Below, piece after piece: positions 1,129 to 63,793 of a stretch of 64,000 nt of DNA. The notes below the pieces were generated by a model. That model was given only the letters and a program-made list of their open reading frames with translations. It was not told the origin of the DNA and made no database searches. Origin of the DNA: Candidatus Dormiibacterota bacterium (GTDB lineage: Bacteria; Chloroflexota; Dormibacteria; Aeolococcales; Aeolococcaceae); the NCBI GenBank assembly GCA_963718525.1, contig OY970355.1:2176001-2240000 (forward strand), written 5' to 3'. Each line of letters starts with the position of its first letter. Position 1 is the stretch's first letter. The position numbers were made by a program, and so were the translations under genes.

Positions 1129-1202
1129 CGGGGAGTAGCTCAGATGGTTAGAGTACTGGTCTGGGGGACCAGGGGTCGCAGGTTCGAGTCCTGTCTCCCC
1201 GA
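1129..1202 (+). tRNA. tRNA-Pro(GGG), CCA not encoded; anchor/attL of the array
   Basis: Acceptor stem CGGGGAG/CTCCCCG, D arm, anticodon stem CTGGT/ACCAG with loop CT-GGG-GG, T arm GCAGG-TTCGAGT-CCTGT. Confidence 0.97.
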
Positions 1203-1269
1203 CGGGCGCGCGTCAGAGGGCATTTGCGAGATCAAAAGACGGCCCGTCTTCGTACGTTCCGTCGCTGGA

Positions 1270-1735
1270 TTTTGGATTGGCTCACTGTGGGCAATCATCG
1301 CCGACAACAAACTGGCACGTGTCGATGCCGCGTCCGGAAGAGTAACTGCTGCCACCATCACAACACCATATCCAGCCCAGGAAGTCATCAGCGGCTTGGG
1401 GCCAGATGTTTTCATCGTCGAGAGCATCGGCGGGGGGAGTGCTGCTGTCGCGCGCGTCAACCCTGCATCCAATTGCGTGGACGGGCTGAGCGCGCCCTTC
1501 AGCGCCGACGCTGAGAGCGCCACCTTGATAACCAATGGTCCCAGCGGTGTCCACGTCGCATACAGCGTCGGCAAACTTGCCCCGATTGATCCGGCCACCA
1601 TGCAGACCCGCGCCACCACCACCCTGGACCAACCAGGATTACTTAGCCTACCCGTCCTTTGGCTTCGGGTCAGTCTGGTTCCCTACGTTCGGAAACAATA
1701 CCCTCCTACGCGTCAAGCCTCTGGTCCTTGATATA
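1270..1735 (+). pseudogene. Fragment of a beta-propeller (YncE/Vgb-like) protein
   Basis: Repeated GSLW..LARVD and FGFGSVW..TLLRV motifs in two frames, no credible start. Confidence 0.45.
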
Positions 1736-1815
1736 GCGCCAAACGTGAAGCGAGCGGCACACATCGAGGCAGCCCGAACTGGGCACCGATCCTGTCATCC
1801 ATATCGTTGGTCACA

Positions 1816-2739
1816 TCAGGCGAGGCGGCGGCGAACCCACAAGAAGCAGAACGTGGCTATGAGGAGGGCGAGTCCGACGTATATGGCCGTCTCGTACCAC
1901 TGGAATGGCCAGTAGCGGTCAGCGGGTTGATAGGTGAATCCAATCCGGCGCAGCGCACCAGAACAAGCTCGGGCGCTCGCGCCTGATCCGATAGTGCAGC
2001 TGGCATCCGTCCAATGAGAAAGAACCCAATCATCGGGATGCGGCGGGGTGACCGAACCGGCGACGACCGGCAAGGGGCCGCGGGTCCCCAGCGTAAGAAA
2101 CGTTAGTGGACTCTGAAAATACGGTCGCACCAGCTGGCTGACTACCAGTCGTGCTGCAATGAATCCAGCGAGCGTGGCGGCCATCGCCGGCAGAGTGCGA
2201 CGGATGATTGCACCTAGTGCGACCCCTAGGGTGAAAGCGAAGGCGGCGTAGCCGATCGGGACGATTGCTCGCTCATCGAAGACCCCCGGCACGAAGCGGT
2301 TCATGTTGACCGAATCGATCGGGCTGAACCACCACGTGACCATGAGGCTGAAGAGTGCCGTAACGCCGATGCTCGCCAAGCCGACGACGCCGAGTTTCAC
2401 CGTGAGCCATCGCTCCCGGGTGACGCTCTGCGTCCAGATCAACAAGAAGGTGTTGGTTTCAAGCTCTCGGGCGACGAGCGGGGCACCCCAAAACATTCCG
2501 ATCAGAGCTGGTACGACGATCATGACATCGCCGAGCGCTGATTGGAGGAGGGCGTCGTTGTTGACGAAATTGGCTGTGGCGGTTGCGCAGTTTCCATAGA
2601 CAGCACATGGCCTGACGGTCGTGTCATAGAGGTGCACCAGCTGCGGTTCAGTGGTCGCCAAGACAATCCCTAAGGCCACAAGGAGCCCGAAGACCACTGC
2701 GGCTTGCGTTCGAAACTGGAGCAACGCAAACCGAATCAT
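1816..2739 (-). CDS. ABC transporter permease
   Basis: Multi-TM protein with GAPLVARELE..W.QSVTR.RWL motif; overlaps the ATPase gene. Confidence 0.85.
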   Translation of the reverse strand: MIRFALLQFRTQAAVVFGLLVALGIVLATTEPQLVHLYDTTVRPCAVYGNCATATANFVNNDALLQSALGDVMIVVPALIGMFWGAPLVARELETNTFLLIWTQSVTRERWLTVKLGVVGLASIGVTALFSLMVTWWFSPIDSVNMNRFVPGVFDERAIVPIGYAAFAFTLGVALGAIIRRTLPAMAATLAGFIAARLVVSQLVRPYFQSPLTFLTLGTRGPLPVVAGSVTPPHPDDWVLSHWTDASCTIGSGASARACSGALRRIGFTYQPADRYWPFQWYETAIYVGLALLIATFCFLWVRRRLA

Positions 2740-3632
2740 CGAAGGATGCCGATGCCGGATCGACGAGCTTTTTCGGCGCTGCGCGCCCGGCTCATGTATG
2801 CGAGCACGAGATCTTCAACTGTCACAGGCCTGACGGTCCAGGTCGGATCCAGGATCGGTTCCGTGGTTCGCACCAGAAGAACGCTCTGCCTGTCGGTATG
2901 GCTCTCCTCGATGACTTCATTGGTCATCGGGAGAGCCGTGAGGTCTCGGCGACGACCGGAGAGCCGGCAGTGCGACGCCAACAGCTCACCGACATCACCT
3001 GCGATCTGAACGTACGAGGAAGCGAGCACGACCATGTAGTCGCACACCCGTGCAAGGTCAGAGACGAGATGTGAGGAAAGCACAACGCTGATTCCGCGCT
3101 CAGCGACGACTGCCATAAGGGTTTGGAGGAAGTCGCGGCGAGCGAGAGGGTCCAAACTGGCCACCGGTTCATCAAGGATGAGGACTTCAGGGCGTTTTGC
3201 GATCGCAAGGGTGAGAGCAAGCTGAGCCCGCTGACCGCCCGAGAGGGTACCTGCATGCTGGCCTGGGTCAAGGCCGAGTTGTTCTATTTGTCGCTCGGCC
3301 AGGGCGCCGTCCCAATTCGGGTTGAGCATGGCTCCCATCCGAAGGTGATCTGCAACGGAAATACCTGCATACGTTGGGGTTACCTGGGCAACGAAACCAA
3401 CCCGTCCGAGTTGGTTTGGACCATCAGCGGGACGACCGCCGAGTACCGCCACCGTGCCAGAAGTCGGAGAAGCGATACCAACCGCTAGGTGCAACAACGT
3501 TGTTTTGCCAGCGCCATTTGGGCCGACAAGGCCGACGACCTTCCCGGCCGGGATCGACAGCGTGCAGTCGCGGAGTGCCCAATGCCGCCGGTAGCGTTTT
3601 CCCAAGCCACTGGTTTCAAGGACAGCCGTCAT
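2736..3632 (-). CDS. ABC transporter ATP-binding protein (YtrB-like)
   Basis: Walker A GPNGAGKT, LSGGQ signature, Walker B LILDEP, SSH. Confidence 0.95.
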   Translation of the reverse strand: MTAVLETSGLGKRYRRHWALRDCTLSIPAGKVVGLVGPNGAGKTTLLHLAVGIASPTSGTVAVLGGRPADGPNQLGRVGFVAQVTPTYAGISVADHLRMGAMLNPNWDGALAERQIEQLGLDPGQHAGTLSGGQRAQLALTLAIAKRPEVLILDEPVASLDPLARRDFLQTLMAVVAERGISVVLSSHLVSDLARVCDYMVVLASSYVQIAGDVGELLASHCRLSGRRRDLTALPMTNEVIEESHTDRQSVLLVRTTEPILDPTWTVRPVTVEDLVLAYMSRARSAEKARRSGIGILR

Positions 3633-4021
3633 GCCACGCCCTCGGCGAAGCTGTCGCGGAAAGCGGTCCGGTATATCGCCTCAATATCGTCTGCATCCAA
3701 GCCCGCTGAGCGTGCCGAGCGCAGCCACTGCGTCATCGAAGCGAGGAGGCGAGCTTGAGTTGCGGGATTGGTGCGGGACAGGGATGCGATCACGAACGTT
3801 CCCTGACCTGGACGAGGCCGTACGAGGCGCTCGCGTTCGAGATCCCGATATGCCTTCAGAACAGTGTTCGGATTGATTGCCAACTGGCTGACGACTTGCT
3901 GAGCCGTCGGCAACTGGTCCCCGGGCTCTAGGAGCCCGAGACGCATGGCCTGATGAACCTGCTGCACCAGCTGCAGATAGGTGGCTACGCCAGAGGTTGT
4001 GTCGAGCTGAAATTGGATCAT
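3629..4021 (-). CDS. GntR/YtrA-family regulator
   Basis: Short GntR wHTH (YLQL..PGDQLP..INPNTVLKAYRDLE..GQGTFV) heading an ABC operon. Confidence 0.92.
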   Translation of the reverse strand: MIQFQLDTTSGVATYLQLVQQVHQAMRLGLLEPGDQLPTAQQVVSQLAINPNTVLKAYRDLERERLVRPRPGQGTFVIASLSRTNPATQARLLASMTQWLRSARSAGLDADDIEAIYRTAFRDSFAEGVA

Positions 4022-4113
4022 AAAACCTTCTTCAACTAATCTCTTAGTGCAAGCGTATCACGGTCGTGGTTTGACGCATGGCACCCCTGCGCCGTCAGCC
4101 CGTGAATGGCGCG

Positions 4114-4345
4114 TTGCAGACCATGGCGTGAGGGACTTCAGGGGGGCATATCGCGAACTACCTGCACGGGGCCGGATCGATTGCCCTGACTCATCACGGG
4201 CCGCTCATCGCTTGACTCCCCGGTGCTGGCAGATGAATCAGCGACGGCACGAGCAGTGGCCTAGCTTGGGGAAGCGGTGAATCGGATTCGCTCTGGCGCC
4301 GGAATGAGCAAGGACGAACTCAGCGACTGGTTCAATCTCAGGCAG
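4114..4345 (+). pseudogene. Decayed Phd/YefM-like antitoxin
   Basis: With frameshifts reads approximately MQTIGVRDFRGHIANYL..IALTHHG...GMSKDELSDWFNL; lies upstream of a PIN relic. Confidence 0.5.
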
Positions 4346-4362
4346 CCATCGCCGGACTAAAG

Positions 4363-4770
4363 TTGGCAGTCGATGCCCGCACCCGCGTCGCCGCGCTAAT
4401 CAGCGGGGTCGCGCGCTCTTTGCGCGCGCTGAACTGCGCTGATGGTAAGCGAGCATGTGGGGCGACCACTCGCGGGCTCGTGCGCCGAGCGACGGTACTC
4501 CAACAGTGTCGGATCAACCGCGGTGGGCGAGCTGCTGGCTGCCGCGAATGATGTCGGCCAGAAGCGTTTCGTGGCTGTGCCTGCTGCCGCCTCCTCTCGC
4601 GCGAAGCGATCGCACCGCCCACCCGTCCGCGACGAAGTGATCAGTCGACGGCCGCATTGGCGCCCGCGACCGATGCGGCAATCCTGCCCAAGCGACCCCG
4701 GCTTCCTGGGCGGCGGAGCCGTGACGTCGGCCTACAAAACGCTGCTGCGGAGCTCCAGCGCGCACAGAGC
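4363..4770 (+). pseudogene. Decayed PIN-domain toxin
   Basis: LAVDAR..VAAL start and ALA.ATDAAIL..DPGFLGGG C-terminal motif across frameshifts; homologous DNA at 22455-22665. Confidence 0.55.
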
Positions 4771-4932
4771 CGGGACCCTAATGATGCTCGGTCCTTACCT
4801 CCGCGCACGTATCGTCGTCGCAACATGCAGGCTAGTTCAGCCGTTTCCAACTTATGGGGATCGGTCGTCATTCCAACCATCTCCCGACGAAATGACTCTA
4901 AATCGAAGTCAGCACTCATCGAGAATTGAATG

Positions 4933-4980
4933 CTGGTCTGGGGGGGCCAGGGGTCGCAGGTTCGAGTCCTGTCTCCCCGA
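4933..4980 (+). repeat. tRNA-Pro 3'-half copy, att site R1 (48 nt, altered G-run)
   Basis: Matches 1156-1202 except CTG7CCAG in place of CTG5ACCAG; conserved arm about 4840-4932; followed by CGGACGCGCAA. Confidence 0.95.
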
Positions 4981-5109
4981 CGGACGCGCAATGCCTCATT
5001 TCGCGACAAGCGGTTGTGCTGTTCGGCATGAGCGACACCGAGCGGCGAAAGACGACAGAGCCTCAGGAGTTGGCAGTTCGGCGTTTCGCTACGCTCCCCG
5101 TATGGGTCG

Positions 5110-5796
5110 ATGCGCGTAAATCCTGATCCCATGGTTGGGTTGACGTGGACGGACGACATCGTCGCGCGTTCGGCGGCCCCCGGCGAGAACGCCCTGCTCT
5201 ACCTCAGCCTGCTGAGCTCTGCTGGCCTCGTGCCCGTCCTGATCACGCCGAAATCATCGACGACGGTCCTTGCCCGCCTTGACGGTCTCGTCGTACCCGG
5301 CGGCCCCGACATTGCACCAGCTCGGTATGGACAGGAGCCGGGACCGCACACGGAGACCTCCATCGAGGACCTGGACGCGCTCGAACTCGAGATCGTGACG
5401 GCAGCTCGTGCTCGCAACCTTCCGATGCTCGGGATATGCCGAGGGCAGCAGGTGCTGAACGTCGCGCTGGGCGGAACGCTACACCAGCACGTCGACCATC
5501 CCCGGTGGGGCGCGGACCCTGCAGCGCCGATTCACGAAGTGCAGATTCTTGAGGACACTTACCTGCGACACATCCTTCGTGTAGACGTAGCAGCGGTGAA
5601 TAGTGGCCACCACCAGGCTGTGGACCGCCTGGCACCATCCCTACACCCGGCCGCCGTCAGCAGTGACGGGTGCGTCGAAGCCCTCGAGGCTCCGGATTTG
5701 CTGCTCCTGGCTGTGCAATGGCACCCCGAAGAGATGCCCGAAGCGCAGAGCTCTCGCCGGCTCGTCGAAGGATTCGCACGATGGATCAAGGGCTGA
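5110..5796 (+). CDS. Gamma-glutamyl-GABA hydrolase family (peptidase C26, PuuD-like)
   Basis: PGGPDI, LGICRGQQ nucleophile elbow, HHQAV, VQWHPE. Confidence 0.9.
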   Translation: MRVNPDPMVGLTWTDDIVARSAAPGENALLYLSLLSSAGLVPVLITPKSSTTVLARLDGLVVPGGPDIAPARYGQEPGPHTETSIEDLDALELEIVTAARARNLPMLGICRGQQVLNVALGGTLHQHVDHPRWGADPAAPIHEVQILEDTYLRHILRVDVAAVNSGHHQAVDRLAPSLHPAAVSSDGCVEALEAPDLLLLAVQWHPEEMPEAQSSRRLVEGFARWIKG

Positions 5797-5964
5797 CGCA
5801 AGGTCCTGGTTGATGTTCTGTCCTGCAAAACCACTTGTGATTCCAACGCGGAGTTGTCTCTGCAGGTAGGTAGCGTCAAGGCGCCGTCGTGTCGGCCGGC
5901 AGAGGCTCTCCGCGCTTCTCGATCATTGCGAGCTGATACGCGCGGCTAAGCAGATCGAGGTGCA

Positions 5965-5991
5965 TGAACCGCCGCGGGTTTCATAGAGGCG
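5965..5991 (+). mobile_element. Orphan IS3-family-like left inverted repeat
   Basis: TGAACCGCCGCGGGTTTCATAGAGGC resembles the IS6110-type end TGAACCGCCCCGG..GGAGACTC; no transposase nearby. Confidence 0.45.
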
Positions 5992-6072
5992 CTGGGGAGT
6001 CCCGACTTCGGTGGAGTCGCGTGCTTGATCCTTTGCCCTCCCAACGGTAAGACTTCGTGTTATCGTCTGCTT

Positions 6073-6333
6073 GTGCGAACGACCGGGACCGTGACGATCT
6101 CTTTGTCGCCAGAGCTCGCGGTCGAAGTCGATCGCCTGGCGCACCAGGAGGGTCGGACACGCAGCGAACTTTTGCGCGAAGCGTTTCGCCAGTATGCGGA
6201 GCGACGCAGACGATGGGACCAGCTTTTTGCGTATGGAGAAGGACGAGCGGCGGCCGGCGCCCTGACTGAAGACACAGTCGCTGCCGCGGTGAAGTCGCGT
6301 CGTCGCCTATCTCGCCGCAAGCTAACACGCTGA
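6073..6333 (+). CDS. CopG/RHH antitoxin (probably leaderless, GTG 6073)
   Basis: TVTISLSPEL..VDRLA..EGRTRSELLREAFRQY; TGtTATCGT extended -10 ends 7 nt upstream. Confidence 0.88.
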   Translation: MRTTGTVTISLSPELAVEVDRLAHQEGRTRSELLREAFRQYAERRRRWDQLFAYGEGRAAAGALTEDTVAAAVKSRRRLSRRKLTR

Positions 6334-6732
6334 GTGCGGATTGTCCTCGACACCAATGTGCTGGCTTCGGCGCTCCACTTTGATGGGCGACCGCGACGCC
6401 TCCTCGAGGACATCCTCCGTGGTGATCACCTGCTGATCATCGGTCCCGCGATCCTCGGCGAGCTTGAGGCTGTACTCGTGAAGACCTGTGGCTGGACAAG
6501 CGATCGGGCTGCCGCGGTGCGAGCCGAGCTCGAGGCGATCGCCGAGGTGGTGACGCCGGTCGAGATCCCCCGCCTCTGCCGGGATCCTGATGACGATCAG
6601 GTCCTTGCCATCGCGGTCGTCGGAGCGGTGGATGCACTTGTTACGGGGGACGGCGATCTGCTCGCGCTCGGCGCGCCCCGCGGTGTGAACATCATGTCAG
6701 TCGCCGACTTCGACGTTCTCGCGAGGGACTGA
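6334..6732 (+). CDS. PIN-domain (VapC-like) toxin
   Basis: RIVLDTNVL, E, CRDPDDD, VTGDGDLL acidic motifs; abuts the antitoxin. Confidence 0.93.
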   Translation: MRIVLDTNVLASALHFDGRPRRLLEDILRGDHLLIIGPAILGELEAVLVKTCGWTSDRAAAVRAELEAIAEVVTPVEIPRLCRDPDDDQVLAIAVVGAVDALVTGDGDLLALGAPRGVNIMSVADFDVLARD

Positions 6733-6878
6733 GAAAGGTAGTCCACCGCGTATCCAACACCACGCCTCAAGTCCACAGTGTTCCAACGGATTCCATCACC
6801 CGTGCACTCGTCCTGACTCCAACCATTTCGCGACGAATGCCCTCAAACTCGAACTCAATCTGAATCGGGAGACGAGGA

Positions 6879-6925
6879 CTAATCTGGGGGACCAGGGGTC
6901 GCAGGTTCGAGTCCTGTCTCCCCGA
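6879..6925 (+). repeat. tRNA-Pro 3'-half copy, att site R2
   Basis: CTAAT+CTGGGGGACCAG...CTCCCCGA; arm about 6770-6878; followed by CGGACGCGCAA. Confidence 0.96.
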
Positions 6926-7128
6926 CGGACGCGCAATTTGAGTTCGCAGCAAGCGGTTGTGCGATGTGTGGGGCGCCCATTGGCCGACGGGGTGTGGTGG
7001 TCTAACCAGGAATTATCACTTTTCCTGCAAAAGGCATCAATCCCTACAGTTGGTGCCGGATACCGCGCTCATAGCAAGAGATTCTGGCAGGCAAGCGCAT
7101 ACACAGCGCTTACAGTTTCATCGGGGTG

Positions 7129-8527: not shown

Positions 8528-8543
8528 AACGCGCTCGCCTCGT

Positions 8544-8668
8544 TGTAGAGGTCCGGTAGATACTTGCCACCGCAGGTCAACGAGGTGCTTGACGGCGCGC
8601 AGCGCGTCCGCCTAGTGCTTGACACAGCCGGCCTCCCTCCAGTCCGCTGGGACTGAGCGCCATCGGGT
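8544..8668 (+). mobile_element. IS481-type left-end relic
   Basis: Starts TGT, three GTCC-N4-GATRCTTGAC-like subterminal repeats; homologous to 12459-12590. Confidence 0.6.
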
Positions 8669-8856
8669 TCTTTGAAGTACAGCCGTAGGAGCATCTCGAC
8701 CTCGTTGATCCGAGCTCCTCTCGCGTGGTGAAACTCCCGAACTCGAAAGTCGTGCTGGCACCCTCCGCGTTCGCATGCTGGCAGCCTCCCGGTCCCCAGG
8801 ATCGCGGACTACATTGGCTGCGGAAGATCGAAGACTACTCTCACATAGAGGTGACC

Positions 8857-55811: not shown

Positions 55812-56305
55812 TCCGCGTCCCGCCCGGGCGATCAGGGCAGGTGTGGCTGCGGCGTCGCCTCGAAACCGCCAAGCGGGGGATCGACATCCTCGGTCGCAAA
55901 CAGAGCCTTCTCGCCGTCGAGCGCGAGGGCCGCGATCTCCACGCAACGTCGGCACGAACCGCGTGGATCGATGCCTGCGCCGAGGCCCAACGGTGGTGTT
56001 CGCGGGCGTTGCGGCTCGGACATGAACACCAGATCGCCGTGGTGGCCGCTCATCTGGATGCGTCCGCGACTATTACTGTCGAGTGGCACAACGTGATGGC
56101 GGTATCCATCCCCGAGAACGCTCATTGTGCGTTTTCGGATCTCACGCTTGCGAGTGCGAGTGGCGGTTCCAGCGCCACCGACCGAGCCGTGGAGGCGCTT
56201 GCGTGTGCCCTTGAGAAAGCTGCTGCTCATGCCGCCATCCAGCGTGCGCTGGCCAATATCGACGCTGAGCTGCTGCAAACGCGCCGGCGTCTCCGGCTCC
56301 GGTGA
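55808..56305 (+). pseudogene. ntpD: V/A-ATPase subunit D, 3'-truncated
   Basis: L.RRL..AKRG.D.L..K, NVMAV.IP, EL..TRRRL then immediate stop; about 40-aa C-terminal helix missing. Confidence 0.8.
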
Positions 56306-58491
56306 CTCTGAGCGTCGGCAACATCGTTCCCGCGGACATACGCCTCCTCGAGGTCGACTCCCTGGAGTGCGACGAAGCCGTGCTCACCGGCGAGTCGCTA
56401 CCCGTGCCCAAGACCGCGGAGCCGCAGCCGGATGCGGCCGGCGTCAACCTCGCTTCCTGCGTGTTCATGGGCACCATCGTCCACGAGGGGGCGGCTCGCG
56501 GCGTGGTGGTCGCAACGGGCCCCGCGACGGCGTTCGGTGGCATCGCATCCGGTCTTGCGGAGCCTGCGACGGCCTCCGCATTCCAGCAGGGTTTGAGCAG
56601 CTTCTCGACACTTCTGGTCCGCGTCGCCGGGGTGCTCACACTGACCATCTTCGTCTTCAACATCGCCTTCCACAAACCGATCCTCGATGCATTGCTTTTC
56701 TCGCTGGCCATCGCGGTGGGCATCACCCCGGAGCTGATGCCCGCAATCGTCACCGTGGGGCTGTCGAGTGGATCACGCGCACTGGCTCGGCGCAAGGTGC
56801 TGGTCAAACGACTGGTCGCGATCGAAGATCTCGGCAATATCCAGATCCTCTTCACCGACAAGACCGGGACGCTTACCGAAGGGGCGATCACGTTCGATCG
56901 TAGCCTCGGGGCAGATGGCCAGCCTTCAGACTCGCCGCTGCGCTTCGGCCTCGTGTGCAACGAGTCCACCCCAGGAACCGGTGGACCGGTTGGGGGCAAT
57001 CCGCTCGATCAGGCACTGTGGCAGAGCCCACGGTGTGCGGCCCTCACCCAGCTTCCCGACGGCCCCTCGGCGTTCGCTCGAATGGGACGCGTCCCATTCG
57101 ACCACGAGCGGCAGATGGCGTCGGTGCTGGTCGACGGACCCACGGGGCGCTTGCTGGTCGCCAAAGGCGCGCCTGAATCGGTGCTCGCACGGTGCGTCGG
57201 GCTACCCGAGGCGGCAGGACCGACCCTGGATCGACTCTTCGCTGAGGGCGCTCGCGTGGTCGCGGTGGCAACCCGAACTGGAACGACCACAAGACCCTGC
57301 GCGGACGACGAGCGGGATCTGACCCTGGTCGGGTATCTCACCTTCGTTGACCGACCTAAGGTGGATGCGGGCGACGCGATCGCCCGGCTGCATGGGCTCG
57401 GCATCGAGGTCAAGATCATCACTGGCGACAACGGCACCGTCGCGGCGACGGTGTGCCGGCACATCGGTGTCGATCCCGGGACGGTCGTGACGGGCACGGA
57501 GATCGATGCCCTGGACGACGATGCGCTTGCCCTGGTAATCACCCGGACACGGGTCTTCGCGCGGGTCAGTCCAGATCAGAAGTCTCGGATCATCAAGGTC
57601 ACGAGGCGAACAGGCGTCGACGTCGCGTTCCTTGGCGATGGTGTTAACGACGCCGTTGCTCTGCACCACGCGGACGTCGGCATCTCAGTGGACTCTGCAA
57701 CTGACGTCGCGAAAGATGCGGCGGACATCGTGCTCCTCGACAAGGATCTTGGCGTGCTGGCCGATGGCGTTGTCGAGGGTCGGCGCGTCTTCGCCAACAC
57801 CATCAAGTACGTCCTGATGGCGACATCTTCGAACTTCGGTAACATGTTCAGTGCCGCGGTCGCCTCGGTATTTCTCTCGTTCCTGCCGATGCTGCCGTCG
57901 CAGATTCTGCTCAACAACCTGCTTTACAATGCGGGCCAGCTCGCAATCCCCACGGACGCGGTGGACTCCGAAACCCTGGCTCGACCCGCCGCGTGGGACA
58001 TCGCCTTTGTTCGGCGGTTCATGATCGTCTTCGGCCCAGTGAGCTCCGTGTTCGACTTTCTCACCTTCTTCGTCATGCTCGACCTGCTCAGCGCGGGCCA
58101 CAGTGAGTTCCGGACGGGTTGGTTCGTGGAGTCGCTCGCAACGCAGACACTGGTGATCTATGTCATTCGCACTCGGCGGGTCCCTTTCCTACGTAGCCGG
58201 CCGAGCCCGGCGATGCTGGTGCTTCCGCCTTTATGCGCATTGGTCGGTGCGATCGTTCCCTTCACACCGGTCGCGCGCATCCTGGGATTCTCACCATTAC
58301 CACCGCTCTTCTTCCTGATCCTGGTCGCGATGATCGCGACATATCTCGGCCTGGTGGAATGCGCCAAAATCGTCTTCTACGCTGCGCACCCCCGGGCGTT
58401 CGCGAAACCTCCGTCCACGCATCCCGATCGACTTACCCGAAGAATCGTCCGCCGGCTCAGCCATTTCACGCGCCATCAGTCAGCGGGATGA
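56302..58491 (+). pseudogene. mgtA: Mg2+-transporting P-type ATPase, 5'-truncated
   Basis: TGES, PEL.P, DKTGTLT, KGAPE, TGDN, GDGVND, SSNFGN, FRTGWFVES; begins mid-actuator domain and lacks TM1-2. Confidence 0.85.
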
Positions 58492-58611
58492 CGTGGCGCG
58501 ATGCCGGGTCCGGCGCAAGAGAAGATCAGTGCGTTTTCAAGGCCGGAGGCGTGGTCACAAGTCGGGACCAACGCCTCTTGACAGGCCTCCGATCTGGCTA
58601 TTAGATGAGCC

Positions 58612-59205
58612 TTGACTGACCAATCACAGATGCCTAAGGCGGAAGTTGTGAGCACGCAGAAGATCGTTGTGGGAGTGAATGGGTCGGCGGCATCGGACGC
58701 CGCACTCGAATGGGCAATCCAGGAGGCAGCATCCCGCGGCGCCGAGATCATCGCGGTGCATGTGCTGAAGCCTATCGCCGCCTCTGGCGGTACGACAGTG
58801 AGAGACGTTCGCCTGCGGGAGTTCGACTACCTGGGCGACGAGGTGCGATCGCATGTCAAGAAGGAGTTGTTTGGGCCCCTGACCAAGCATCGGATCATCG
58901 TTGCCGAAGGGCATCCAGCAACAGGGATATTGCACGTCGCCGACACCGAGGACGCAGATCTCATCGTAGTGGGCAATGGGCAACACAGCACGATGGAGGA
59001 TCTCTTCCTCGGGAGTGTTGCCCACGAGTTGACCCACAAAACACGGCGTCCTTTTGCGTTGATTCCTTCGGCGAGGCGCGTCGGAGCGATCGACGCCATG
59101 GGACGCGATCAACGAACCGCGCCTACACCGAGGCAGACTTGGTCGCATCGGACCGGCGATCAGATCGATGAGGTCGCAGCGGGCGCACTCGAACTGGTTC
59201 GGTAG
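58612..59205 (+). CDS. Universal stress protein
   Basis: IVVGVNGS..ALEWA, LIVVG..LGSVA. Confidence 0.85.
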   Translation: MTDQSQMPKAEVVSTQKIVVGVNGSAASDAALEWAIQEAASRGAEIIAVHVLKPIAASGGTTVRDVRLREFDYLGDEVRSHVKKELFGPLTKHRIIVAEGHPATGILHVADTEDADLIVVGNGQHSTMEDLFLGSVAHELTHKTRRPFALIPSARRVGAIDAMGRDQRTAPTPRQTWSHRTGDQIDEVAAGALELVR

Positions 59206-59676
59206 CTCCTTCGACGGGCTCCTCGGTGCGAACGCTGCTAGCAAGACCACCGTGACCCGCTTATAGTTGAGTTCGTGCGCCCGTCGCAGGTGGTAGTGCT
59301 GGCGAGCACCCACGACTGCATCGGGCTGCGGCGGCCCTTGTGCTTGAAGCGCGCCGCATCCGAGCCGCCTTGAGACCCGGTCAGGCAGTCCCCTCCCAAA
59401 ATCCAGGGACACGCAACAGCGGCAAGGCGGTGCCCACGGTTCGGGCACATCCGCAAACGATCTGTGTGACCAAGGACCCTGGCATCGCTCCGAGTCCAGC
59501 GTCAAGCTGCGCTTTGGGTCTAGCGCGCGTGCGAGGAGACAACCCACATGGTAGTAACTGCAGGAGCCGGTACAACTGTCGCGCCGGCTGGGGATCTTCA
59601 TGCTCTCCTCTGGCGACGGAAGTGCTCACGTCCCTCCGGCTAGCCGTGGATGACTAAAGAGTTGGATGGCTAAAGA

Positions 59677-60585
59677 ATGAGAGCAGCACGGATGCCCGCT
59701 GTCGTTGCCCTGGCCGCATTGGCCCTGATCTGTCTCTATTCGGCCTTTACCGTCGGCAGAGTCCTCTTTTCGAATGCGCCACAAGAGGTCGCGTTTACCC
59801 TGGGCACTGTCGATCGGGATGTGACCTACTGCGGATCACAAACACTGGATCTCTATCTCCCTCGTGAGGCTGCGACGCATCCCCTTCCCATCGCGATGTA
59901 CGTCCACGGCGGAGGTTTGACCTCGGGTGATAAGTCGGACATCAACCCGGTCTTCCTCGACGCCCTTGCCTCGGCCGGCTACGCGGCGGCAAGCATCAAC
60001 TATCGACTTGCGCCGATGTCCAAGTTTCCGGCGCAGATCGAGGATGTCAAGTGCGCAATCCGATTTCTGCGCAGCAATGCACCGAAATATGATCTGAACG
60101 CGAAGGAGATGTTCGCATTCGGCACCAGTGCTGGAGGACAGCTTGTCGCGCTTGCCGCACTCGCTGGCCCACACTCGGCCTTCGATGTCGGCGCTTACCT
60201 AGCGGAGCCGAGCAGTGTTACGGCAGTTGCCGATATGTTCGGGCCCGCGAACCTGGCACAAGGAGGAGGCTATTCAACCGCAGGCGTTCAACAAGCCTTC
60301 AGCCAACAGGGCGACACAGTGCTGGCCAGCCCGACCCACTTCGTTGCAGCACACGCGCCGCCAATCCTGATCGTTCAGGGTGTGGACGACGCGAAGGTCA
60401 TTGAGTTGCAGTCGACTGAACTGTACGACGACCTGAGAGCCGTGGGCGACCAGACGCAGATTGTCCTGGTCCAGAACATGGGGCACATGTTCGTGCAGGT
60501 TGGCTCAAGACCGATTGATCCAAGCCTCGCGCAGATTGCGCAGGACATGGTGAACTTCTTCGGTCGCGACGCCGGGGGTGGGTGA
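59677..60585 (+). CDS. Secreted alpha/beta hydrolase (esterase/lipase, HSL-like)
   Basis: HGGG, NYRLAP, GTSAGG, D..V, GH. Confidence 0.9.
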   Translation: MRAARMPAVVALAALALICLYSAFTVGRVLFSNAPQEVAFTLGTVDRDVTYCGSQTLDLYLPREAATHPLPIAMYVHGGGLTSGDKSDINPVFLDALASAGYAAASINYRLAPMSKFPAQIEDVKCAIRFLRSNAPKYDLNAKEMFAFGTSAGGQLVALAALAGPHSAFDVGAYLAEPSSVTAVADMFGPANLAQGGGYSTAGVQQAFSQQGDTVLASPTHFVAAHAPPILIVQGVDDAKVIELQSTELYDDLRAVGDQTQIVLVQNMGHMFVQVGSRPIDPSLAQIAQDMVNFFGRDAGGG

Positions 60586-61359
60586 ATGAACACACTGTCG
60601 TCAACGGGGTCCGACGCCAACGCCCAGGCCAGGGCCGGGCGTCTGATAGTCGCTGGGTATGCGGCTGCGGCCTTGGGTCTGGTTGCGTTTCTCACGATCA
60701 ACGGAATGTCAGGAGTCTCCGCATTTGTTGAGATCGGCACGACGGCTTTGGTTGTGGTCGGACTCCTGCTTCCGGCTGTAGGAATGCTGCAATTGAGAAG
60801 GACCATAGATGGAAGTCGAAAGGCGGCAAGAGATGGCCTGGCCTTGCAGGCGCTCGGGCTGGTTGGTCTGCTGCTTGGGTTGGTTCCCCTCCAGATCTCG
60901 TCGTCTCTCTCTGCCTTGTACGGAATCAGTGCCGTCGTGATCGTCGCGGCGGCCGCATCGGCGGTGGGTGGCGCATCCCTGACACGCAGCCATCTTCGGG
61001 GCATCAATGCTGCGCTTGGCCGAGGTGCTGACTACCTGATACTCGGCATGGTGCTCATCTTCGCCGGCGTGGCATTGATTCTCGGGTCGAACGTGGCCTC
61101 CTACTTTGTCCTCTCAGGCGTTGGGAACACGGTCTATTGCGATGTGGGTGCGACGATCTCAGCCTGCGGCTCTGTAACCGCAGCGTACGCATGCTTCGTG
61201 ATGCACGCTCGCACGCGGCTCGGCTTGGCATCCCTTGAGTATGTGGACGAACCGCATGACAGCGCTGAAGGCGATACTCGGCGTCAAGGGAAGTGGCGCA
61301 AGGGAACGCGAACTATCGGTGGCGACGTCTTGCCTAGTCCAATGGGCCACCAGAGCTAG
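60586..61359 (+). CDS. Hypothetical membrane protein
   Basis: About six hydrophobic segments; abuts the hydrolase gene. Confidence 0.6.
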   Translation: MNTLSSTGSDANAQARAGRLIVAGYAAAALGLVAFLTINGMSGVSAFVEIGTTALVVVGLLLPAVGMLQLRRTIDGSRKAARDGLALQALGLVGLLLGLVPLQISSSLSALYGISAVVIVAAAASAVGGASLTRSHLRGINAALGRGADYLILGMVLIFAGVALILGSNVASYFVLSGVGNTVYCDVGATISACGSVTAAYACFVMHARTRLGLASLEYVDEPHDSAEGDTRRQGKWRKGTRTIGGDVLPSPMGHQS

Positions 61360-61448
61360 GACTTTCGCCTCTTGCAGCTGGTTCGATGCGGTCCGACACT
61401 GATGTCAGATTCCGATTTCAACCCAAAGGAGGTGCGCTGATAGCACTC

Positions 61449-62072
61449 ATGGGAATGCGTTCAGGGACCGCGGTCAGATCGACTCCCGCCCCCGCCTACG
61501 AATGGACCGCCGTCGCGCTCGCGGGCATCTGGCTGAGTGTGGTCTTGGCAAGCATCTTTGCGCCGCCGATGGTCACCGGTACCCAGCACGACCAAGCTCC
61601 CGTCGCCGCGTTTGCGGACTGGATCTGGGGAGCAATCGCTACGGGGGCGGTGCTTCGAACGTCGATGAAAGGGATCCGCGTGGGAGCGACGTCACGAGCA
61701 GCCTGGGTAACGCTGGGAGTCTCGGTTGCGGTCGTGTGGGTTGGGGTTCTCCTAGTCAGCGTCTTCACCCCGGACTTCGTGACCGGCACCGATCCCACTC
61801 GCCTGCCGTTCGGAGCGATGCTGAGTCCCATCGCCGGGTCGGTGCTCACCGGGATCGTTTGCAGCTTCATCAGGGCGGGCTTTCGACGGCCCAAGGCGGC
61901 TGTGGAAGAGGCGAGAGCGACGGCCCCACCGACCGCCCCAACCGTCTCGCAGAAGGCACTTGCTGCGGACGCGACCGCCATGCTTCGTCAGCTCCTGGAG
62001 CTACGCGACGCTGGCGCGATCACTCAAGAGGAATTCGACACGAAGAAACGCGAGCTTCTGAGCCGGATCTGA
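61449..62072 (+). CDS. Membrane protein with C-terminal SHOCT domain
   Basis: Internal repeat (P.MVTGT / P.FVTGT), L..L.ELRDAGAITQEEFDTKKRELL. Confidence 0.8.
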   Translation: MGMRSGTAVRSTPAPAYEWTAVALAGIWLSVVLASIFAPPMVTGTQHDQAPVAAFADWIWGAIATGAVLRTSMKGIRVGATSRAAWVTLGVSVAVVWVGVLLVSVFTPDFVTGTDPTRLPFGAMLSPIAGSVLTGIVCSFIRAGFRRPKAAVEEARATAPPTAPTVSQKALAADATAMLRQLLELRDAGAITQEEFDTKKRELLSRI

Positions 62073-62073
62073 C

Positions 62074-63279
62074 GTGAAACGCACAACCATCATCGGCACT
62101 GCGATCGCCGCTCTCGGCCTCGCAGCGTGTGGCTCGACAGCCGCTCCTAGGGCTACCCCGACCCCAGCGCCGACAGTCGCTTCAACCCCTGCGCCGACGG
62201 CAACGCCCGTGCCGACTCCATCCCCCACTCCCGTGCCGCCTCCGGCGCTGGTGGTGACCGCAGGGCGGATGTCCGCGACTTCTGTGCAACTCAGCCTAGT
62301 CGGTGAGAACGGCAGTGTCGTCGCCACGGTCGACGACCCCGGAGGCGTCGACGGCCACGCGTACTACGTCGGGTCCGACGATGTCTACTTCCTCGACGGC
62401 ACCACCGTGAAGGCGTTCGGCAGAACCGGCACGGTCTCGGTCGTGGGCGAGGTGCCGCAGGTGAAGACATCCGTCACCGCGACGGATCTCCAGGGGTACA
62501 CCACGTTTGCTGTGTCCCCGGACCAGACAACGCTGGTGTTCGGTATCCCCTTGGCAATGACCTTCGACAACAGCGCGACCACCGATCATTCACAGCTCTG
62601 GACCGAGCCCACGGGGGGCACTGCCGCGGACGCGACCATGGTCTACGACGACGCCAACAACAGCGACAACGGCGGCGAGGTCCTGATGCCCTTCGCTTGG
62701 AGCAACGCCGGAATCTCGGTGTCGGAGATGTGCAAAGGACTCGGCGGAGTGGGACCGTTCCTCCAGTTCACTGGCTGCGCCCAAGCCACGTTTAACCCAA
62801 CCACGCGGACGCTCACGCAGGTCCAAGTCAACAACACTTGGGGAGGGTATCTCTGTCCCGCGACAATCGCACCCGGATCGGTGTGCGTCGAGGACGGGAA
62901 TTCGAGCCTGACGGTGGTGCGCAGCTCGGGCAACGAGACGATTGCCCTGCACCCTGTGAACGCAGCGGCGTACGGTCCCGTGAGCGTGTCGGGCGACGGA
63001 CGCTACCTGGCGTATGGCGCGTATGTGGGGGTCTTCGATTCCGGTTATTACGTAACCACGGTCGTGGATCTGAACACCAAACAGACCGTTTCCACCATAC
63101 GGAATTTCGCGCCGGAGGTATGGCTCCCCGACGATCGTCTGGTCGGGTGGGATAACGACTTCCCGGAACGAGGAGCGACCTGGTTGCTCTCACCTGCCTT
63201 CACAAGCCGCACGAATATCTCACCCGCCCCGGCGGTAGGCGCTCTCGGGGTGCTCCCTGCCCACATCCCGCTGGCGTAG
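62074..63279 (+). CDS. Putative lipoprotein with Pro/Thr linker and propeller-like domain
   Basis: LAAC lipobox, (PT)n tract, SPD and SGDGRYLAY motifs. Confidence 0.75.
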   Translation: MKRTTIIGTAIAALGLAACGSTAAPRATPTPAPTVASTPAPTATPVPTPSPTPVPPPALVVTAGRMSATSVQLSLVGENGSVVATVDDPGGVDGHAYYVGSDDVYFLDGTTVKAFGRTGTVSVVGEVPQVKTSVTATDLQGYTTFAVSPDQTTLVFGIPLAMTFDNSATTDHSQLWTEPTGGTAADATMVYDDANNSDNGGEVLMPFAWSNAGISVSEMCKGLGGVGPFLQFTGCAQATFNPTTRTLTQVQVNNTWGGYLCPATIAPGSVCVEDGNSSLTVVRSSGNETIALHPVNAAAYGPVSVSGDGRYLAYGAYVGVFDSGYYVTTVVDLNTKQTVSTIRNFAPEVWLPDDRLVGWDNDFPERGATWLLSPAFTSRTNISPAPAVGALGVLPAHIPLA

Positions 63280-63747
63280 GTCTTTAGCTCCGGGTGGGCC
63301 GAATGGGAGCTCCTCGAAACGGCCTCAGAGCGCCTGTGGGGAGGGCGGTGAGGTCAAGCCACCTGAAGCCGGACGTGGTCTGAGATCGCCGTGGGTGCGG
63401 CTAATCGCGATCGGGGCGTGTAAGGCGAGCTGGCGCTTCCACTCCATCTAGGCCTACCAAGGGTCAAATCCTTCTTGCTACACCCCCTCTAGGCGCTGCG
63501 GAGGGTCGATTCGAATTCACCGAGCGGCAACGGTCATCCCATGCGCCCGTGGTGGCATCAGGACCGTGCGGGCGTGTTCGAGGTAAGAGCACAATGGGGA
63601 AGAAGCGATCTGGGGTACGCCCAATAGCCCTGCGTGGATGTCGACGCGATTCCAGCGGATTCCATTACCCGACCTATTGTCGTCATTCCAACCATTTACC
63701 AACGAAAGCCCTTATAAGTCGCACTCACTCCGATCGCGAAATAGGTA

Positions 63748-63793
63748 CTGGTCTGGGGGCCAGTGGTCGCAGGTTCGAGTCCTGTCTCCCCGA
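63748..63793 (+). repeat. tRNA-Pro 3'-half copy, att site R8 (46 nt, variant)
   Basis: CTGGTCTGGGGGCCAGTGGTC...CTCCCCGA; arm about 63637-63747; followed by TTCGCAGCCCATTGCACTGC as at R4. Confidence 0.95.

Follow-up and report, generated by a model that had tools for sequence, protein, structure and literature searches.

A tandem array of integrase-less cassettes behind a tRNA-Pro(GGG) gene in a soil Dormibacterota genome, probably built by many rounds of accretion

The window analyzed here, a stretch of 64,000 nt, comes from the genome of an uncultured soil bacterium of the Dormibacterota. It contains a single tRNA-Pro(GGG) gene at 1129 to 1203 on the plus strand (ARAGORN; Rfam tRNA score, 63.1 bits), and a 29-nt stretch of its 3' part occurs nine times without a mismatch, always on the plus strand: once in the gene itself and eight times behind it, at 4952, 6897, 12220, 22861, 29259, 36865, 43484, and 63765. 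The chance expectation for such a repeat was 0.00 in 100 shuffles. Successive copies are spaced by 3778, 1945, 5323, 10641, 6398, 7606, 6619, and 20281 nt, in agreement with a preliminary description of this DNA, which had reported eight direct copies of the tRNA 3' half bounding segments of about 3.8 to 20.3 kb. The features of the window, with cassettes numbered S and junctions numbered R, are as follows (nhmmer for junctions and Pfam for cassettes; no strand is given for cassettes S2 to S8).

2 to 1111, plus strand: conserved left flank with a GTPase gene (Der/EngA-like, MMR_HSR1 domain; PF01926, E = 3e-28)
1129 to 1203, plus strand: intact tRNA-Pro(GGG), the attB/attL end of the array (ARAGORN, Rfam)
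1204 to 4795, all genes on the minus strand: cassette S1, with an ABC-2 permease, an ABC ATPase, and a GntR regulator
4796 to 4980, plus strand: junction R1, left arm (E = 4.7e-29) and core (E = 9.5e-16)
4981 to 6746: cassette S2, with a peptidase C26 gene (5110 to 5796), a type B right-arm remnant (5803 to 5851), and an RHH antitoxin and PIN toxin (6025 to 6732)
6747 to 7074, plus strand: junction R2, left arm, core, and type A right arm (E = 2.6e-28, 2.1e-18, and 5.3e-45)
7075 to 12063: cassette S3, with an IS256-type transposase (7185 to 8441, minus strand), an SRPBCC protein, and a GAF/HisKA_3 histidine kinase
12064 to 12397, plus strand: junction R3, left arm, core, and type A right arm
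12398 to 22703: cassette S4, with an IS481-type transposase, SnoaL proteins, DUF427, a sigma-like protein, SDRs, AhpC/TSA, MarR, a glyoxalase, and an NmrA-like protein
22704 to 23039, plus strand: junction R4, left arm, core, and type B right arm
23040 to 29109: cassette S5, with a HisKA_3 histidine kinase, a lipoprotein-repeat protein, and unknowns
29110 to 29409, plus strand: junction R5, left arm, core, and integrase-type right arm (an A/B hybrid), up to the integrase start codon
29410 to 30408, plus strand: Xer-like tyrosine integrase, 332 amino acids (PF00589, E = 9.8e-28)
30443 to 36712: cargo behind the integrase (the rest of S6), with an ACT fragment, a Crp-like regulator, a full-length sigma-70 paralogue, and an aldehyde dehydrogenase
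36713 to 37042, plus strand: junction R6, left arm, core, and type B right arm
37043 to 43338: cassette S7, with an alpha/beta hydrolase, MarR, an epimerase, TetR, and an amidase
43339 to 43651, plus strand: junction R7, left arm, core, and type A right arm
43652 to 63610: cassette S8 (20 kb), with two Usp genes, an ABC exporter, V/A-type ATPase genes (I, c, A, and B), a P-type ATPase, an esterase, a SHOCT protein, and unknowns
63611 to 63941, plus strand: junction R8, left arm, core, and type B right arm

Each unit of the array consists of a right arm, cargo, a left arm, and then a 43- to 47-nt copy of the tRNA, so that the left arm of a cassette meets the right arm of its downstream neighbor at each internal junction (about 330 bp as a whole, including 43 to 52 nt of tRNA). 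Judged by this arrangement, the internal junctions look like attP sites. In every copy, identity with the tRNA sets in at the anticodon loop and ends with the discriminator base, and the fragment points the same way as the gene. The core of R1 carries two changes, both in the anticodon-loop part, and that of R8 a 1-nt deletion and one substitution. The left arm, of about 130 nt, is conserved at every copy, with profile matches at all eight in-window copies (E <= 5.4e-27). Its consensus, derived from 55 junctions in seven genomes, contains three direct ATTCCA motifs spaced by 10 and 26 nt and also a copy of the tRNA 5' half that lacks the D arm; at R3, positions 12189 to 12248 score as a tRNA without a D arm (Rfam tRNA, 29.3 bits). 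Most right arms belong to one of three related types, being of type A at R2, R3, and R7, of type B at R4, R6, and R8, and of the hybrid integrase type at R5. The type A arm measures 195 nt and is at least 80% conserved in most columns among 25 copies. At R1 the right arm shows weak similarity only (E = 0.0015); the earlier statement that every copy lies in homologous arms is hence correct for all eight left arms and for seven of the eight right arms. The sequence 3' of the intact tRNA is itself unrelated to the right arms. Right-arm remnants were also found within cassettes, in S2, in S4 (type A, 14456 to 14492), and in S10. S2 is apparently a fusion of two cassettes, its halves being located in separate cassettes in the relative G003. 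Taken together, the anatomy of the junctions is as expected of, and supports, the repeated integrase-mediated insertion at the tRNA anticodon loop that had been proposed for this locus.

The array proved larger than reported and extends past position 63793, with three more copies at window-equivalent positions 65271, 71694, and 154514 and, at 148344, a junction remnant in which a left arm is fused to an integrase fragment. Genome-wide, 12 core and 12 left-arm matches were found, all on one strand and at most 153 kb downstream of the tRNA, and none elsewhere in the 3.34 Mb; the junction repeats are therefore not scattered over the genome. Pfam scans of the 57 distinct open reading frames (ORFs) in the window detected no phage, conjugation, or replication families, as had been stated before, and the only transposases were of the IS256 and IS481 types. 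Further IS256 copies are present elsewhere in the genome. Could the array be an artefact of assembly or binning, caused by repeated tRNA-like sequence? The short-read contigs of four runs all break at the cores, so that cassette adjacency cannot be confirmed from them, and several of the relatives are fragmented metagenome-assembled genomes (MAGs). However, the window was taken from a genome that is a single contig, multi-junction arrays occur within long contigs of independent assemblies (G050:C13, 212 kb; G019:C1, 422 kb; G003:C2, 755 kb; G057:C9, 192 kb), and the unique cargo between the repeats is covered in three other samples. We consider an artefact highly improbable.

The sole cognate recombinase of the array is the Xer-like tyrosine integrase behind R5, 28 kb from the tRNA. 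No other PF00589 gene and no serine recombinase (PF00239) was found in the 153-kb array, and a tblastn search across all of it returned a single fragment of a decayed integrase. Both the position of the recombinase after R5 and the description of the cassettes as lacking an integrase of their own thus stand, and the decayed integrase genes that would have spoken against the latter are not found in most segments. When aligned to XerC-like, XerA, and XerD structures, the protein retains all of the catalytic residues R-K-H-R-W-Y. The top model matches were XerA, XerS, XerC, and XerD, all below cut-off, as for every NCBIfam model. The alignment to the two-domain Xer model begins at residue 27, which leaves no room for a lambda-type arm-binding domain, although the arms are conserved. 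Identity as an integron integrase was rejected (TIGR02249, 36.8 bits against a cut-off of 265; PRK15417, 16.9 against 435).

Among 42 genomes of the genus, each representing a species, an ortholog of the integrase was present in 8 and undetected in 34. It lies directly after the intact tRNA in seven of the eight related loci, starting about 123 nt past it, and an integrase-type right arm is found 3' of the intact tRNA in six of the eight. Nucleotide homology between the window and these loci stops at 30437 to 30442. The left flank is syntenic over 8 to 10 kb, with 78.5 to 84% nucleotide identity in seven relatives' loci and 68 to 72% in L010. The integrase genes of seven species are 94.5 to 99.7% identical at the nucleotide level, whereas the flanks are 79 to 87% identical, except for one pair at 94.8%; from the identity of the genes, the integrase would seem to have spread between species recently. 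In all five arrays of other species that were checked, the DNA from the first detected core to the last is free of PF00589 genes, and one of these arrays has 16 full cores and junctions plus a partial core over 200 kb on a single contig. Given the 34 genomes in which no ortholog was detected and the five arrays devoid of a tyrosine recombinase between their outermost cores, the integrase would need to be supplied transiently, and the idea that service by a single recombinase is a feature of the platform had to be abandoned.

The origin of such a supply is suggested by G008, the one relative that was annotated, in which the integrase is the first gene of a 90.6-kb element. At its far end, this element is closed by a left arm and a core, both of which fit the models of cassette junctions (E = 2.3e-30 and 9.1e-18). 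It has genes for type IV secretion and plasmid partition and encodes coupling-protein domains (PF02534, P-loop_TraG, and TrwB), a T2SSE (VirB11-like) ATPase, ArdC_N, ParA-like and ParB proteins, and an AAA_30 helicase; no relaxase or VirB4 was detected among the 20 ORFs scanned of the 88 called. Coupling-protein fragments also occur inside the array of G019, and 17 proteins of the G008 element gave no tblastn match in the 153-kb array. Judged by their arms, cores, and gene content, the cassettes resemble a CIME: the att sites on their two sides belong to one family with those of this integrase-bearing element, and they lack integration and transfer genes.

The cassettes range from 1.5 to 20 kb, and the number of genes per cassette from 1 to about 19. 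These genes occupy both strands and include regulators, which sets the cassettes apart from promoterless single ORFs; toxin-antitoxin pairs are of the RHH/PIN and MNT/HepT types. In searches of relatives with the R7 junction as the query, cassette content and order varied, as had been anticipated. Whole cassettes, several with toxin-antitoxin pairs, recur core to core in other species at 92 to 97% identity, while the flanking DNA is just 80 to 86% identical and adjacent cassettes differ. For instance, a 2.7-kb cassette is common end to end to G003, G019, and G057 (92 to 97%) with unrelated neighbors and with identity switching at the cores, and a 1.9-kb cassette is 95.6% identical in G050 and G057. 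The S1 cargo is 95% identical to G004:C1, where it stands behind a left arm and core away from the tRNA; S10 and the first cassette of G050:C13 share 93% identity; and the S4 cargo is 94 to 95% identical in G024, G011, and G048. S5 matches G017:C170 at 99% over 5.3 kb, and the cargo behind the integrase recurs in G024:C199 at 94 to 98%, with the same starting breakpoint and no integrase, but these two, like G043:C60, are short MAG contigs with high-identity matches and possibly misbinned. The kinase gene of S5 is 98% identical in G016:C3.

These data bear on the reading put forward in the preliminary description, a dedicated integron-like platform in which a resident recombinase captures purpose-built nonautonomous cassettes and the newest of them lies next to the tRNA. 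Such a platform would be in line with the single intact integrase that accompanies at least 11 junctions, with the five segments separating this gene from the tRNA, with small cassettes (1.5 to 2.7 kb) that move as units with complete arms, and with toxin-antitoxin cassettes as in chromosomal integrons. Yet the integrase is not fixed at the locus, fails the integron-integrase model, and in G008 heads an element with conjugation genes; the cassettes are multigenic with genes in both orientations; and there is no promoter-plus-attI arrangement. It is plausible that the newest cassette lies nearest the tRNA, but the order of shared cassettes shows no consistent age gradient. What survives of the integron-like reading is the anatomy, the integrase-less cassettes, the variable content and order, and the confinement of the repeats to one locus; the single-recombinase platform, the integron-like recombinase, and the integron type of cassette do not, and we regard a dedicated platform as unlikely.

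Instead, we favor, with a probability of roughly 0.62, the view that a family of integrative elements uses this locus, at the anticodon loop of tRNA-Pro(GGG), as its attachment site in the chromosome and that the array reflects many rounds of accretion of CIME-like, integrase-less cassettes. Most likely, the enzyme responsible was the integrase of a conjugative element. Such an element would integrate at the tRNA or at a junction, excise together with adjacent cassettes, carry these to another cell, and later leave or decay, the integrase-less cassettes being cis-mobilizable (CIME-like) or trans-mobilized passengers. Cassettes left behind would retain working att junctions, while distal junctions would afterwards erode and cassettes fuse; signs of such decay are the integrase fragment at 148344, the coupling-protein fragments of G019, and the right-arm remnants within cassettes. 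Here, the integrase would persist as an orphan in the sixth segment, and the five segments between it and the tRNA, representing at least six original cassettes, would have been inserted there. Several points count against accretion. Among them are the many genomes without an integrase ortholog, the lack of room for an arm-binding domain, the relaxase and VirB4 not detected among the ORFs scanned in G008, the possible misbinning of some high-identity matches, and the failure to observe an excised circle. Moreover, the type A and B right arms differ from the integrase-type arm, which simple loss of the integrase from copies of the element does not explain, and the identical cores of 43 to 52 nt are long enough for RecA-dependent recombination, with the same breakpoints.

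The last point leads to a reading in which the junctions are old integration scars and today's gain, loss, and reshuffling of cassettes proceed by homologous recombination with DNA obtained from relatives by any route, without an integrase. In this scenario, each junction offers about 330 bp at 75 to 95% identity around the identical core, direct repeats this long are suited to deletion and duplication, and the switches in identity fall in the block common to all copies, where efficiency would peak; moreover, diverse arrays exist in genomes without the integrase. Homologous recombination, however, leaves the conserved ATTCCA spacing and the 195-nt type A arm unexplained, and the cognate integrase is intact and spreading between species. 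At the one boundary checked base by base there was no chimeric arm, and left-arm variants still differ up to 2 nt short of the anticodon loop. We think it rather unlikely that recombination of this kind explains the present-day arrays. Also tentative, and less likely than not, is the proposal that the junctions are live sites of a trans-mobilized cassette system, with small integrase-less cassettes, each bearing an attP-like site of roughly 330 bp composed of a tRNA-Pro copy without the D arm plus conserved arms, excised singly, exchanged between species, and reinserted at tRNA-Pro(GGG) or at any junction by the Xer-like integrase visiting on the conjugative element. Excised circles, empty sites, and recombinant junctions were not seen, and the contigs of the four runs all break at cores. 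If the proposal is true, the locus would be a tRNA-anchored working analogue of a chromosomal superintegron in the Dormibacterota, with arrays of up to 200 kb and toxin-antitoxin cassettes stabilizing them.

In chromosomal (super)integrons, exchangeable cassettes form long arrays on one strand, with recombination sites between them; their recombinase is a tyrosine recombinase without an arm-binding domain, and their arrays contain toxin-antitoxin cassettes. Their attC sites are short hairpins, and the cassettes are mostly single, promoterless, co-oriented ORFs. The present array resembles them in its length on one strand, its tyrosine recombinase, and its toxin-antitoxin cassettes. In contrast, its junctions are attP-like, with half a tRNA rather than an attC hairpin, its cassettes are self-regulated, and its recombinase is not fixed at the array head. 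Membership among the integrons was rejected, as an IntI-type integrase, an integrase fixed at the head at attI, and attC/single-ORF cassettes are all absent.

Parallels also come from accretion, which is known from Streptococcus (PMC5704250), Dehalococcoides (PMC3146451), and Prochlorococcus (bioRxiv 10.1101/2020.12.28.424599). In the CIME/accretion model of PMC5704250, elements without integration and transfer genes keep attL and attR, stand in tandem with an ICE at the 3' end of the target gene, and can be mobilized together with it; in ICESt1/ICESt3-type accretion in Streptococcus thermophilus the internal sites are chimeric att sites. The present array shares the tandem integrase-less units with chimeric att-like junctions and differs in having at least 11 junctions in one genome (16 full cores and one partial in one relative's contig), many small cassettes (1.5 to 2.7 kb), a tRNA-Pro(GGG) anticodon loop as the target, an Xer-like integrase, and a host from an uncultured phylum; mobilization here is putative. 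The Dehalococcoides ssrA islands (PMC3146451) are multiple and tandem, lie within 100 kb downstream of one small-RNA gene in strain-variable number, and are bounded by a direct repeat of the gene's 3' end (20 bp of tmRNA); 15 islands lack an integration module and were suggested to be CIMEs, 16 carry their own module, and the recombinase is a 540-amino-acid serine recombinase. Compared with that description, the tandem units behind one small-RNA gene and the 3'-end repeats are alike, whereas here the repeat comprises 43 to 52 nt of tRNA between two arms of about 130 nt, the enzyme is a tyrosine recombinase, and nearly all units lack one.

The tycheposons and tRNA-linked islands of Prochlorococcus, as described in bioRxiv 10.1101/2020.12.28.424599, are tyrosine-recombinase elements that insert at tRNA genes and push older ones inward, leaving partial tRNAs, fragmented integrases, and degenerated remnants throughout islands with adaptive cargo; tycheposons encode their own integrase and replication genes. 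In contrast, the units of the present array retain complete conserved arms, and the integrase is part of an element with conjugation genes. Membership among the tycheposons was rejected, with one integrase per at least 11 units and no primase or other replication family among the scanned ORFs. The Islander/TIGER catalogues (PMC4383910, PMC12424338) list islands that lie between a tRNA and the 3' fragment displaced from it, in many cases with an anticodon-centered crossover. They accept a tandem member only with its own integrase, and Islander counts 125 tandems of at least two and 4 of at least three among 3919 islands. By these rules, an array of the present type would go uncalled. Its displaced fragments all run from the anticodon loop to the 3' end on the plus strand in the orientation of the gene, as in a tRNA-targeting island with an anticodon-loop crossover. 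In conclusion, the array is an extreme and unusually extensive form of a known process and not a new kind of integron.

The tandem array of tRNA-Pro 3' copies that the preliminary description reported is confirmed here and extends well beyond the window, and its interpretation as an integron-like cassette array served by a single recombinase is partly supported. The features to which we refer are listed in window coordinates; R1 to R8 are the junctions and S1 to S8 the cassettes within the window, with R9 onward, S9, S10 and a distal segment lying beyond it.

1129-1203, plus strand: intact tRNA-Pro(GGG) gene at the head of the array
12189-12248, plus strand: end of the left arm plus core of junction R3
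23030: inner edge of the S5 right arm
28311-29015: 703-nt stretch of S5, missing from G017:C170 and from one contig of sequencing run X4 (an indel polymorphism within the cassette)
29410-30408: int, the tyrosine integrase gene behind junction R5
30442: inner edge of the int module
33088-34188: complete sigma-70 gene (regions 1.1 to 4), in the cassette behind int
49278-55811: V/A-type ATPase cluster (I, c, A, B, and unknowns), P-type ATPase, and two Usp genes, in the 20-kb cassette S8
148,344 (window equivalent): twelfth junction, a left arm fused to integrase codons 8-52 (70-74% identity)

The gene at the head of the array is the sole tRNA that ARAGORN detects in the window. The 29 nt from its T arm to the discriminator base occur in nine perfect copies in the window, all on the plus strand, against a shuffle expectation of 0 (100 shuffles), and the spacings of this repeat reproduce the segment sizes previously given. 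Across the whole genome (one contig of 3,336,189 bp, ~64% G+C), the exact 29-mer is found 10 times and a 20-mer 11 times, every copy again on the plus strand. A profile of the 52-nt core gives 12 matches at E <= 2.5e-14, namely the gene and 11 copies, all on the plus strand between genome positions 2,177,152 and 2,330,560; the next-best match is another proline tRNA (E = 9.6e-5). These genome-wide positions set the length of the array at ~153 kb, or 4.6% of the genome. The junction repeats are thus not scattered over the genome, core and left arm being confined to the array on one strand. No other tRNA in this genome has more than two displaced copies. One or two displaced 3' copies accompany each of tRNA-Leu(GAG) (genome positions 2,577,136-2,582,186; two short consecutive segments, 2.2 and 2.8 kb long, and fragmentary PF00589 matches at 2,581,209-2,581,659), tRNA-Lys (1,027,086-1,045,429; an 18-kb island with an intact integrase), and tRNA-Gly(GCC) (2,746,441-2,753,504; a 7-kb island with an integrase fragment).

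At the junctions, the match to the tRNA starts at the anticodon loop and stops at the discriminator base. Insertion by a tyrosine integrase at the anticodon loop of a tRNA characteristically leaves this pattern, which is repeated here at least 11 times. A left arm of ~130 nt lies 5' of the core at all 10 full junctions (E <= 5.4e-27) as well as at two degenerate ones, and is absent from the rest of the genome. Its consensus, derived from 55 junctions in seven genomes, contains three direct ATTCCA motifs spaced by 10 and 26 nt and, adjacent to the core, a D-arm-less copy of the tRNA 5' half. The acceptor-like bases of this copy vary and their pairing is not maintained in the junction alignment, which argues against a working RNA and suggests either ancestry or a putative core-type binding site. 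On the Rfam tRNA model, the D-arm-less R3 sequence scores 29.3 bits (threshold, 29) and the other junctions score lower (R7, 21.7 bits).

The right arms fall into three related kinds. Type A spans ~195 nt, is at least 80% conserved in most columns (25 copies), and includes a 9-bp inverted repeat; type B is conserved over ~140 nt; and the integrase-type arm reaches the int start codon. Among 66 sites with full flanks in seven genomes, the left arm is present at 55, the remaining 11 being mostly intact tRNA genes, and the right arm is of type A at 31, of type B at 17, and unclassified at 18. A search of the arms for known RNA families in Rfam returned only tRNA and one junction at the tRNA threshold, RNAalifold gave no convincing consensus fold in the 25 type A arms (weak folds of -14 and -17 kcal/mol per 200 nt), and promoter and terminator counts at two junctions did not exceed the shuffle expectation.

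The earlier statements on gene content also hold: the array contains a single PF00589 match and no PF00239 match, and no phage, conjugation, or replication family was recognized by Pfam among 57 distinct window ORFs. The lone recombinase, the 332-residue int product, is nearest to the XerA, XerS, XerC, and XerD models while remaining under every curated cutoff. A 300-position Xer-type model aligns from residue 27, so that the remaining Arg/Pro-rich extension is too short to accommodate a lambda-type arm-binding domain. The protein lines up with solved Xer structures at the R, K, H-x-x-R, W, and Y positions. Decayed integrases do not populate the other segments: tblastn found no remnant in S1 to S5 or S7 to S10 (E <= 10), the fragment in the twelfth junction being the single one, and none in the retrieved arrays of three relatives (G003, G006, and G019; E <= 1). 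Homology to other genomes stops exactly at the inner edges of the int module and of the S5 right arm, and no site or IS was recognized at either breakpoint. These breaks indicate that arm modules and cargo have partly separate histories.

The close relatives are Candidatus Dormibacterota (Dormibacteraeota) metagenome-assembled genomes from soils, including palsa. Some genomes counted in the tallies for family and genus are flagged as unpublished (G027, G036, G061, G062, G071, G117, G151, and G152), and apart from these tallies no specific statement made here depends on them. A 311-nt junction query matched in all 24 other genus genomes sampled, usually several times in tandem on one strand, and in the sister family its match was limited to the tRNA part. 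Left arm plus core matched in 32 of 41 other genus genomes at E <= 1e-20 (counted from the results table) and also, within three further genera of the family, in a few genomes. Junction number in related species ranges from 2 to at least 16, with displaced copies numbering 2 in the single-contig genome G051, 4 in G019, and 12 in G057, and with G050:C13 carrying 16 full cores and a partial one across 200 kb, all following a single intact tRNA. In G050 a second intact tRNA-Pro(GGG) gene (G050:C14:71628-71703; the first is at G050:C13:211509-211583) is followed by five copies, so that two genes of 75 and 76 nt each head an array; either a true duplication or the mixing of two strains in one bin could account for this. 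Orthologs of int (87-89% amino acid identity) occur in only 7 of the 41 genomes, and the integrase is thus much rarer in the genus than the junctions. In five genomes whose arrays are large or well assembled (G050, G057, G003, G019, and G052), none of the 44 PF00589 matches listed lay between the first and last detected cores. A search of viral contigs with the core 29-mer gave only one match, in IMG/VR, which we rejected as a family member: it carries a different, 89% identical tRNA-Pro(GGG) followed by a 29% identical integrase.

Where the integrase does occur in relatives, it is tied to the same arm and sits directly behind the intact tRNA. In seven of eight related loci, int starts ~123 nt 3' of an intact tRNA-Pro(GGG), in six of these behind an integrase-type arm; in one locus a deletion extends into the tRNA. 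The 5' flanks are syntenic with our source genome, after which homology returns solely for the ~1.2-kb module of arm and int and stops 29-34 nt past the stop codon. Downstream follows a backbone common to the relatives and missing from the source genome. In L003 to L009, a stretch after int is conserved, inserts of 0-6.4 kb occur ~375-435 nt past the stop codon, and the shared backbone then follows; this position may be a second insertion hot spot within the conjugative element.

In G008, 90.6 kb separate the tRNA from the left arm and core that follow next, and this int-headed element carries conjugation genes. Among the 20 of its 88 called ORFs that were scanned, we found coupling-protein domains (PF02534, P-loop_TraG, and TrwB_AAD_bind), a T2SSE (VirB11-like) ATPase, ArdC_N, a ParA-like ATPase, ParB, an AAA_30/UvrD_C_2 helicase with a weak TraI-associated domain, and a topoisomerase zinc-ribbon protein, and neither a relaxase nor VirB4. 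Fragments of its coupling protein recur in the G019 array, and 17 of its proteins gave no match in the source array. Outside the window, at genome positions 339,000-353,000, the source genome encodes homologues of its TraG P-loop protein (56% identity), VirB11-like ATPase (39%), and coupling protein (28%); a further conjugative element may lie here and could provide functions for transfer. The int genes of seven species are 94.5-99.7% identical to one another, more than their flanks (79-87%, except for one pair at 94.8%), and the source int is 85-86% identical to them. This pattern points to horizontal spread of the integrase between species, probably on a recently spreading element, with the source copy representing an older, orphaned lineage.

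The cassettes, too, have moved between species as whole units with breakpoints at the cores, as seen on comparison of all pieces of the retrieved arrays after cutting at the cores. A 2.7-kb cassette encoding a PRiA4_ORF3 protein and a small UPF0175-like protein is common end to end to G003, G019, and G057 at 92-97%, compared with a flank identity of 80% between G003 and G057. Its alignment shows ~40% (random) identity 5' of the preceding left arm, family-level similarity inside the arm, and 90-100% identity from the core through the next core, after which identity falls to ~30%. G050 and G057 share, over its full length and at 95.6% identity, a 1.9-kb cassette that encodes a GNAT protein together with an MNT/HepT toxin-antitoxin pair. 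Content and order are not invariant: S1, adjacent to the tRNA in the source genome, recurs at 95% identity in G004 behind another cassette (flank identity, 78.5-80%). The cassette that comes first on G050:C13 matches S10 at 93% identity, and S5 matches G017:C170 at 99% over 5.3 kb, although this contig is short and could be misbinned; on a long G016 contig, the kinase gene of S5 is found at 98% identity. Further copies of the RHH/PIN module are present in G003, G050 (two copies), and G057.

Decay is evident as changes in four cores (those of R1, R8, and R9 and the last one), as right-arm remnants within S2, S4, and S10, and in S2, the halves of which are separate cassettes in G003. No junction remnants were detectable in the 76.6 kb at window-equivalent 71.7-148.3 kb. 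We considered this stretch as core genome and set that aside: the 82.8-kb distal segment matches parts of five different G050:C13 cassettes, and the stretch more plausibly consists of fused cassettes.

The cargo of the window, from genes called with a codon model trained on long ORFs of the genome, lies on both strands and comprises transport functions (ABC systems, a P-type ATPase, and a V/A-type ATPase operon), stress proteins (Usp, AhpC/TSA, and glyoxalase), redox enzymes (SDRs, aldehyde dehydrogenase, and amidase), regulators (two HisKA_3 kinases, a full sigma-70 paralogue, and Crp, MarR, TetR, and GntR family members), one RHH/PIN toxin-antitoxin pair, and IS256- and IS481-type transposases. 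The sigma-70 gene has ~75% nucleotide identity to the housekeeping copy (genome position 1,708,803) and 89-91% to copies in a few other species. IS elements (IS256-type twice, IS481-type, and IS110-type) lie just inside cassettes, 140-600 nt after the right arm (window 7185-8441 and 12855-13802; L001:1429-3802), and the IS256 and IS481 copies have 100% identical counterparts elsewhere in the array or genome.

Taken together, these features suggest that the integrase created the junctions and may still act on them, either in cis with the conjugative element or in trans; arrays in integrase-free genomes would have been loaded on transient visits of the element. For present-day dynamics, a serious competing explanation is homologous recombination among the repeated junctions, which would cross over in the same identical core as the integrase, so that the two are inseparable by sequence. 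Of 20 sequencing runs listed as containing the sequence, none is recorded as RNA. Four public runs (X2 to X5), all of them Logan contigs, were compared with window 20001-40000 and have no bearing on excision: 30 of 30 bins were covered in X2 to X4, and contigs ended at the cores and gave no usable joints. Loose ends at 36843, 36890, and 29294 arise because contigs from elsewhere (other junctions or the tRNA gene) were aligned there through their core portion, and a joint from 29294 to 36989 was set aside because one side spans only 25 letters.

The uncultured Dormibacterota abound in soil and permafrost, and to our knowledge little is known of gene exchange among them. In the source genome, 153 kb of exchangeable genes for stress, transport, redox, and regulatory functions lie at a single tRNA locus. 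A simple Xer-like integrase, long conserved att arms, and many natural substrate variants make this a convenient system for studying how integrase-less DNA is captured and moved. A full-text search of the literature on Dormibacterota integrases or tycheposons found no such array, which is no proof of its absence in print. Islander lists only four tandems of three or more among 3919 islands (PMC4383910), and both Islander and TIGER demand an integrase in each island (PMC4383910, PMC12424338), so that arrays of this kind would be invisible to them. Such finders would miss nearly all of this array, and the flexible genome of these lineages may be underannotated.

In outline, the array resembles an integron in being a one-strand array of exchangeable units with a simple tyrosine recombinase and toxin-antitoxin cassettes. 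The likeness ends there, as the locus lacks every integron feature tested; for example, the int product scores 36.8 on the integron-integrase model against a cutoff of 265. Compared with Prochlorococcus islands, it resembles their inward-pushed remnants (10.1101/2020.12.28.424599). By contrast with integrons, the locus shows the sequence-level features of accretion of integrative and conjugative elements and cis-mobilizable elements (CIMEs), integrase-less passengers, mobilization being putative here. The steps proposed above correspond to the accretion and cis-mobilization model for CIMEs as outlined in PMC5704250, which is likewise put forward for 15 Dehalococcoides ssrA islands without an integration module (PMC3146451). 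Against this background, the array stands out by its scale (11 junctions spread across 153 kb in the source genome and, in a relative, 16 together with one partial core across 200 kb), by the near absence of integrases, by its many small units with intact arms, by the D-arm-less tRNA copy in each site, and by its host phylum.
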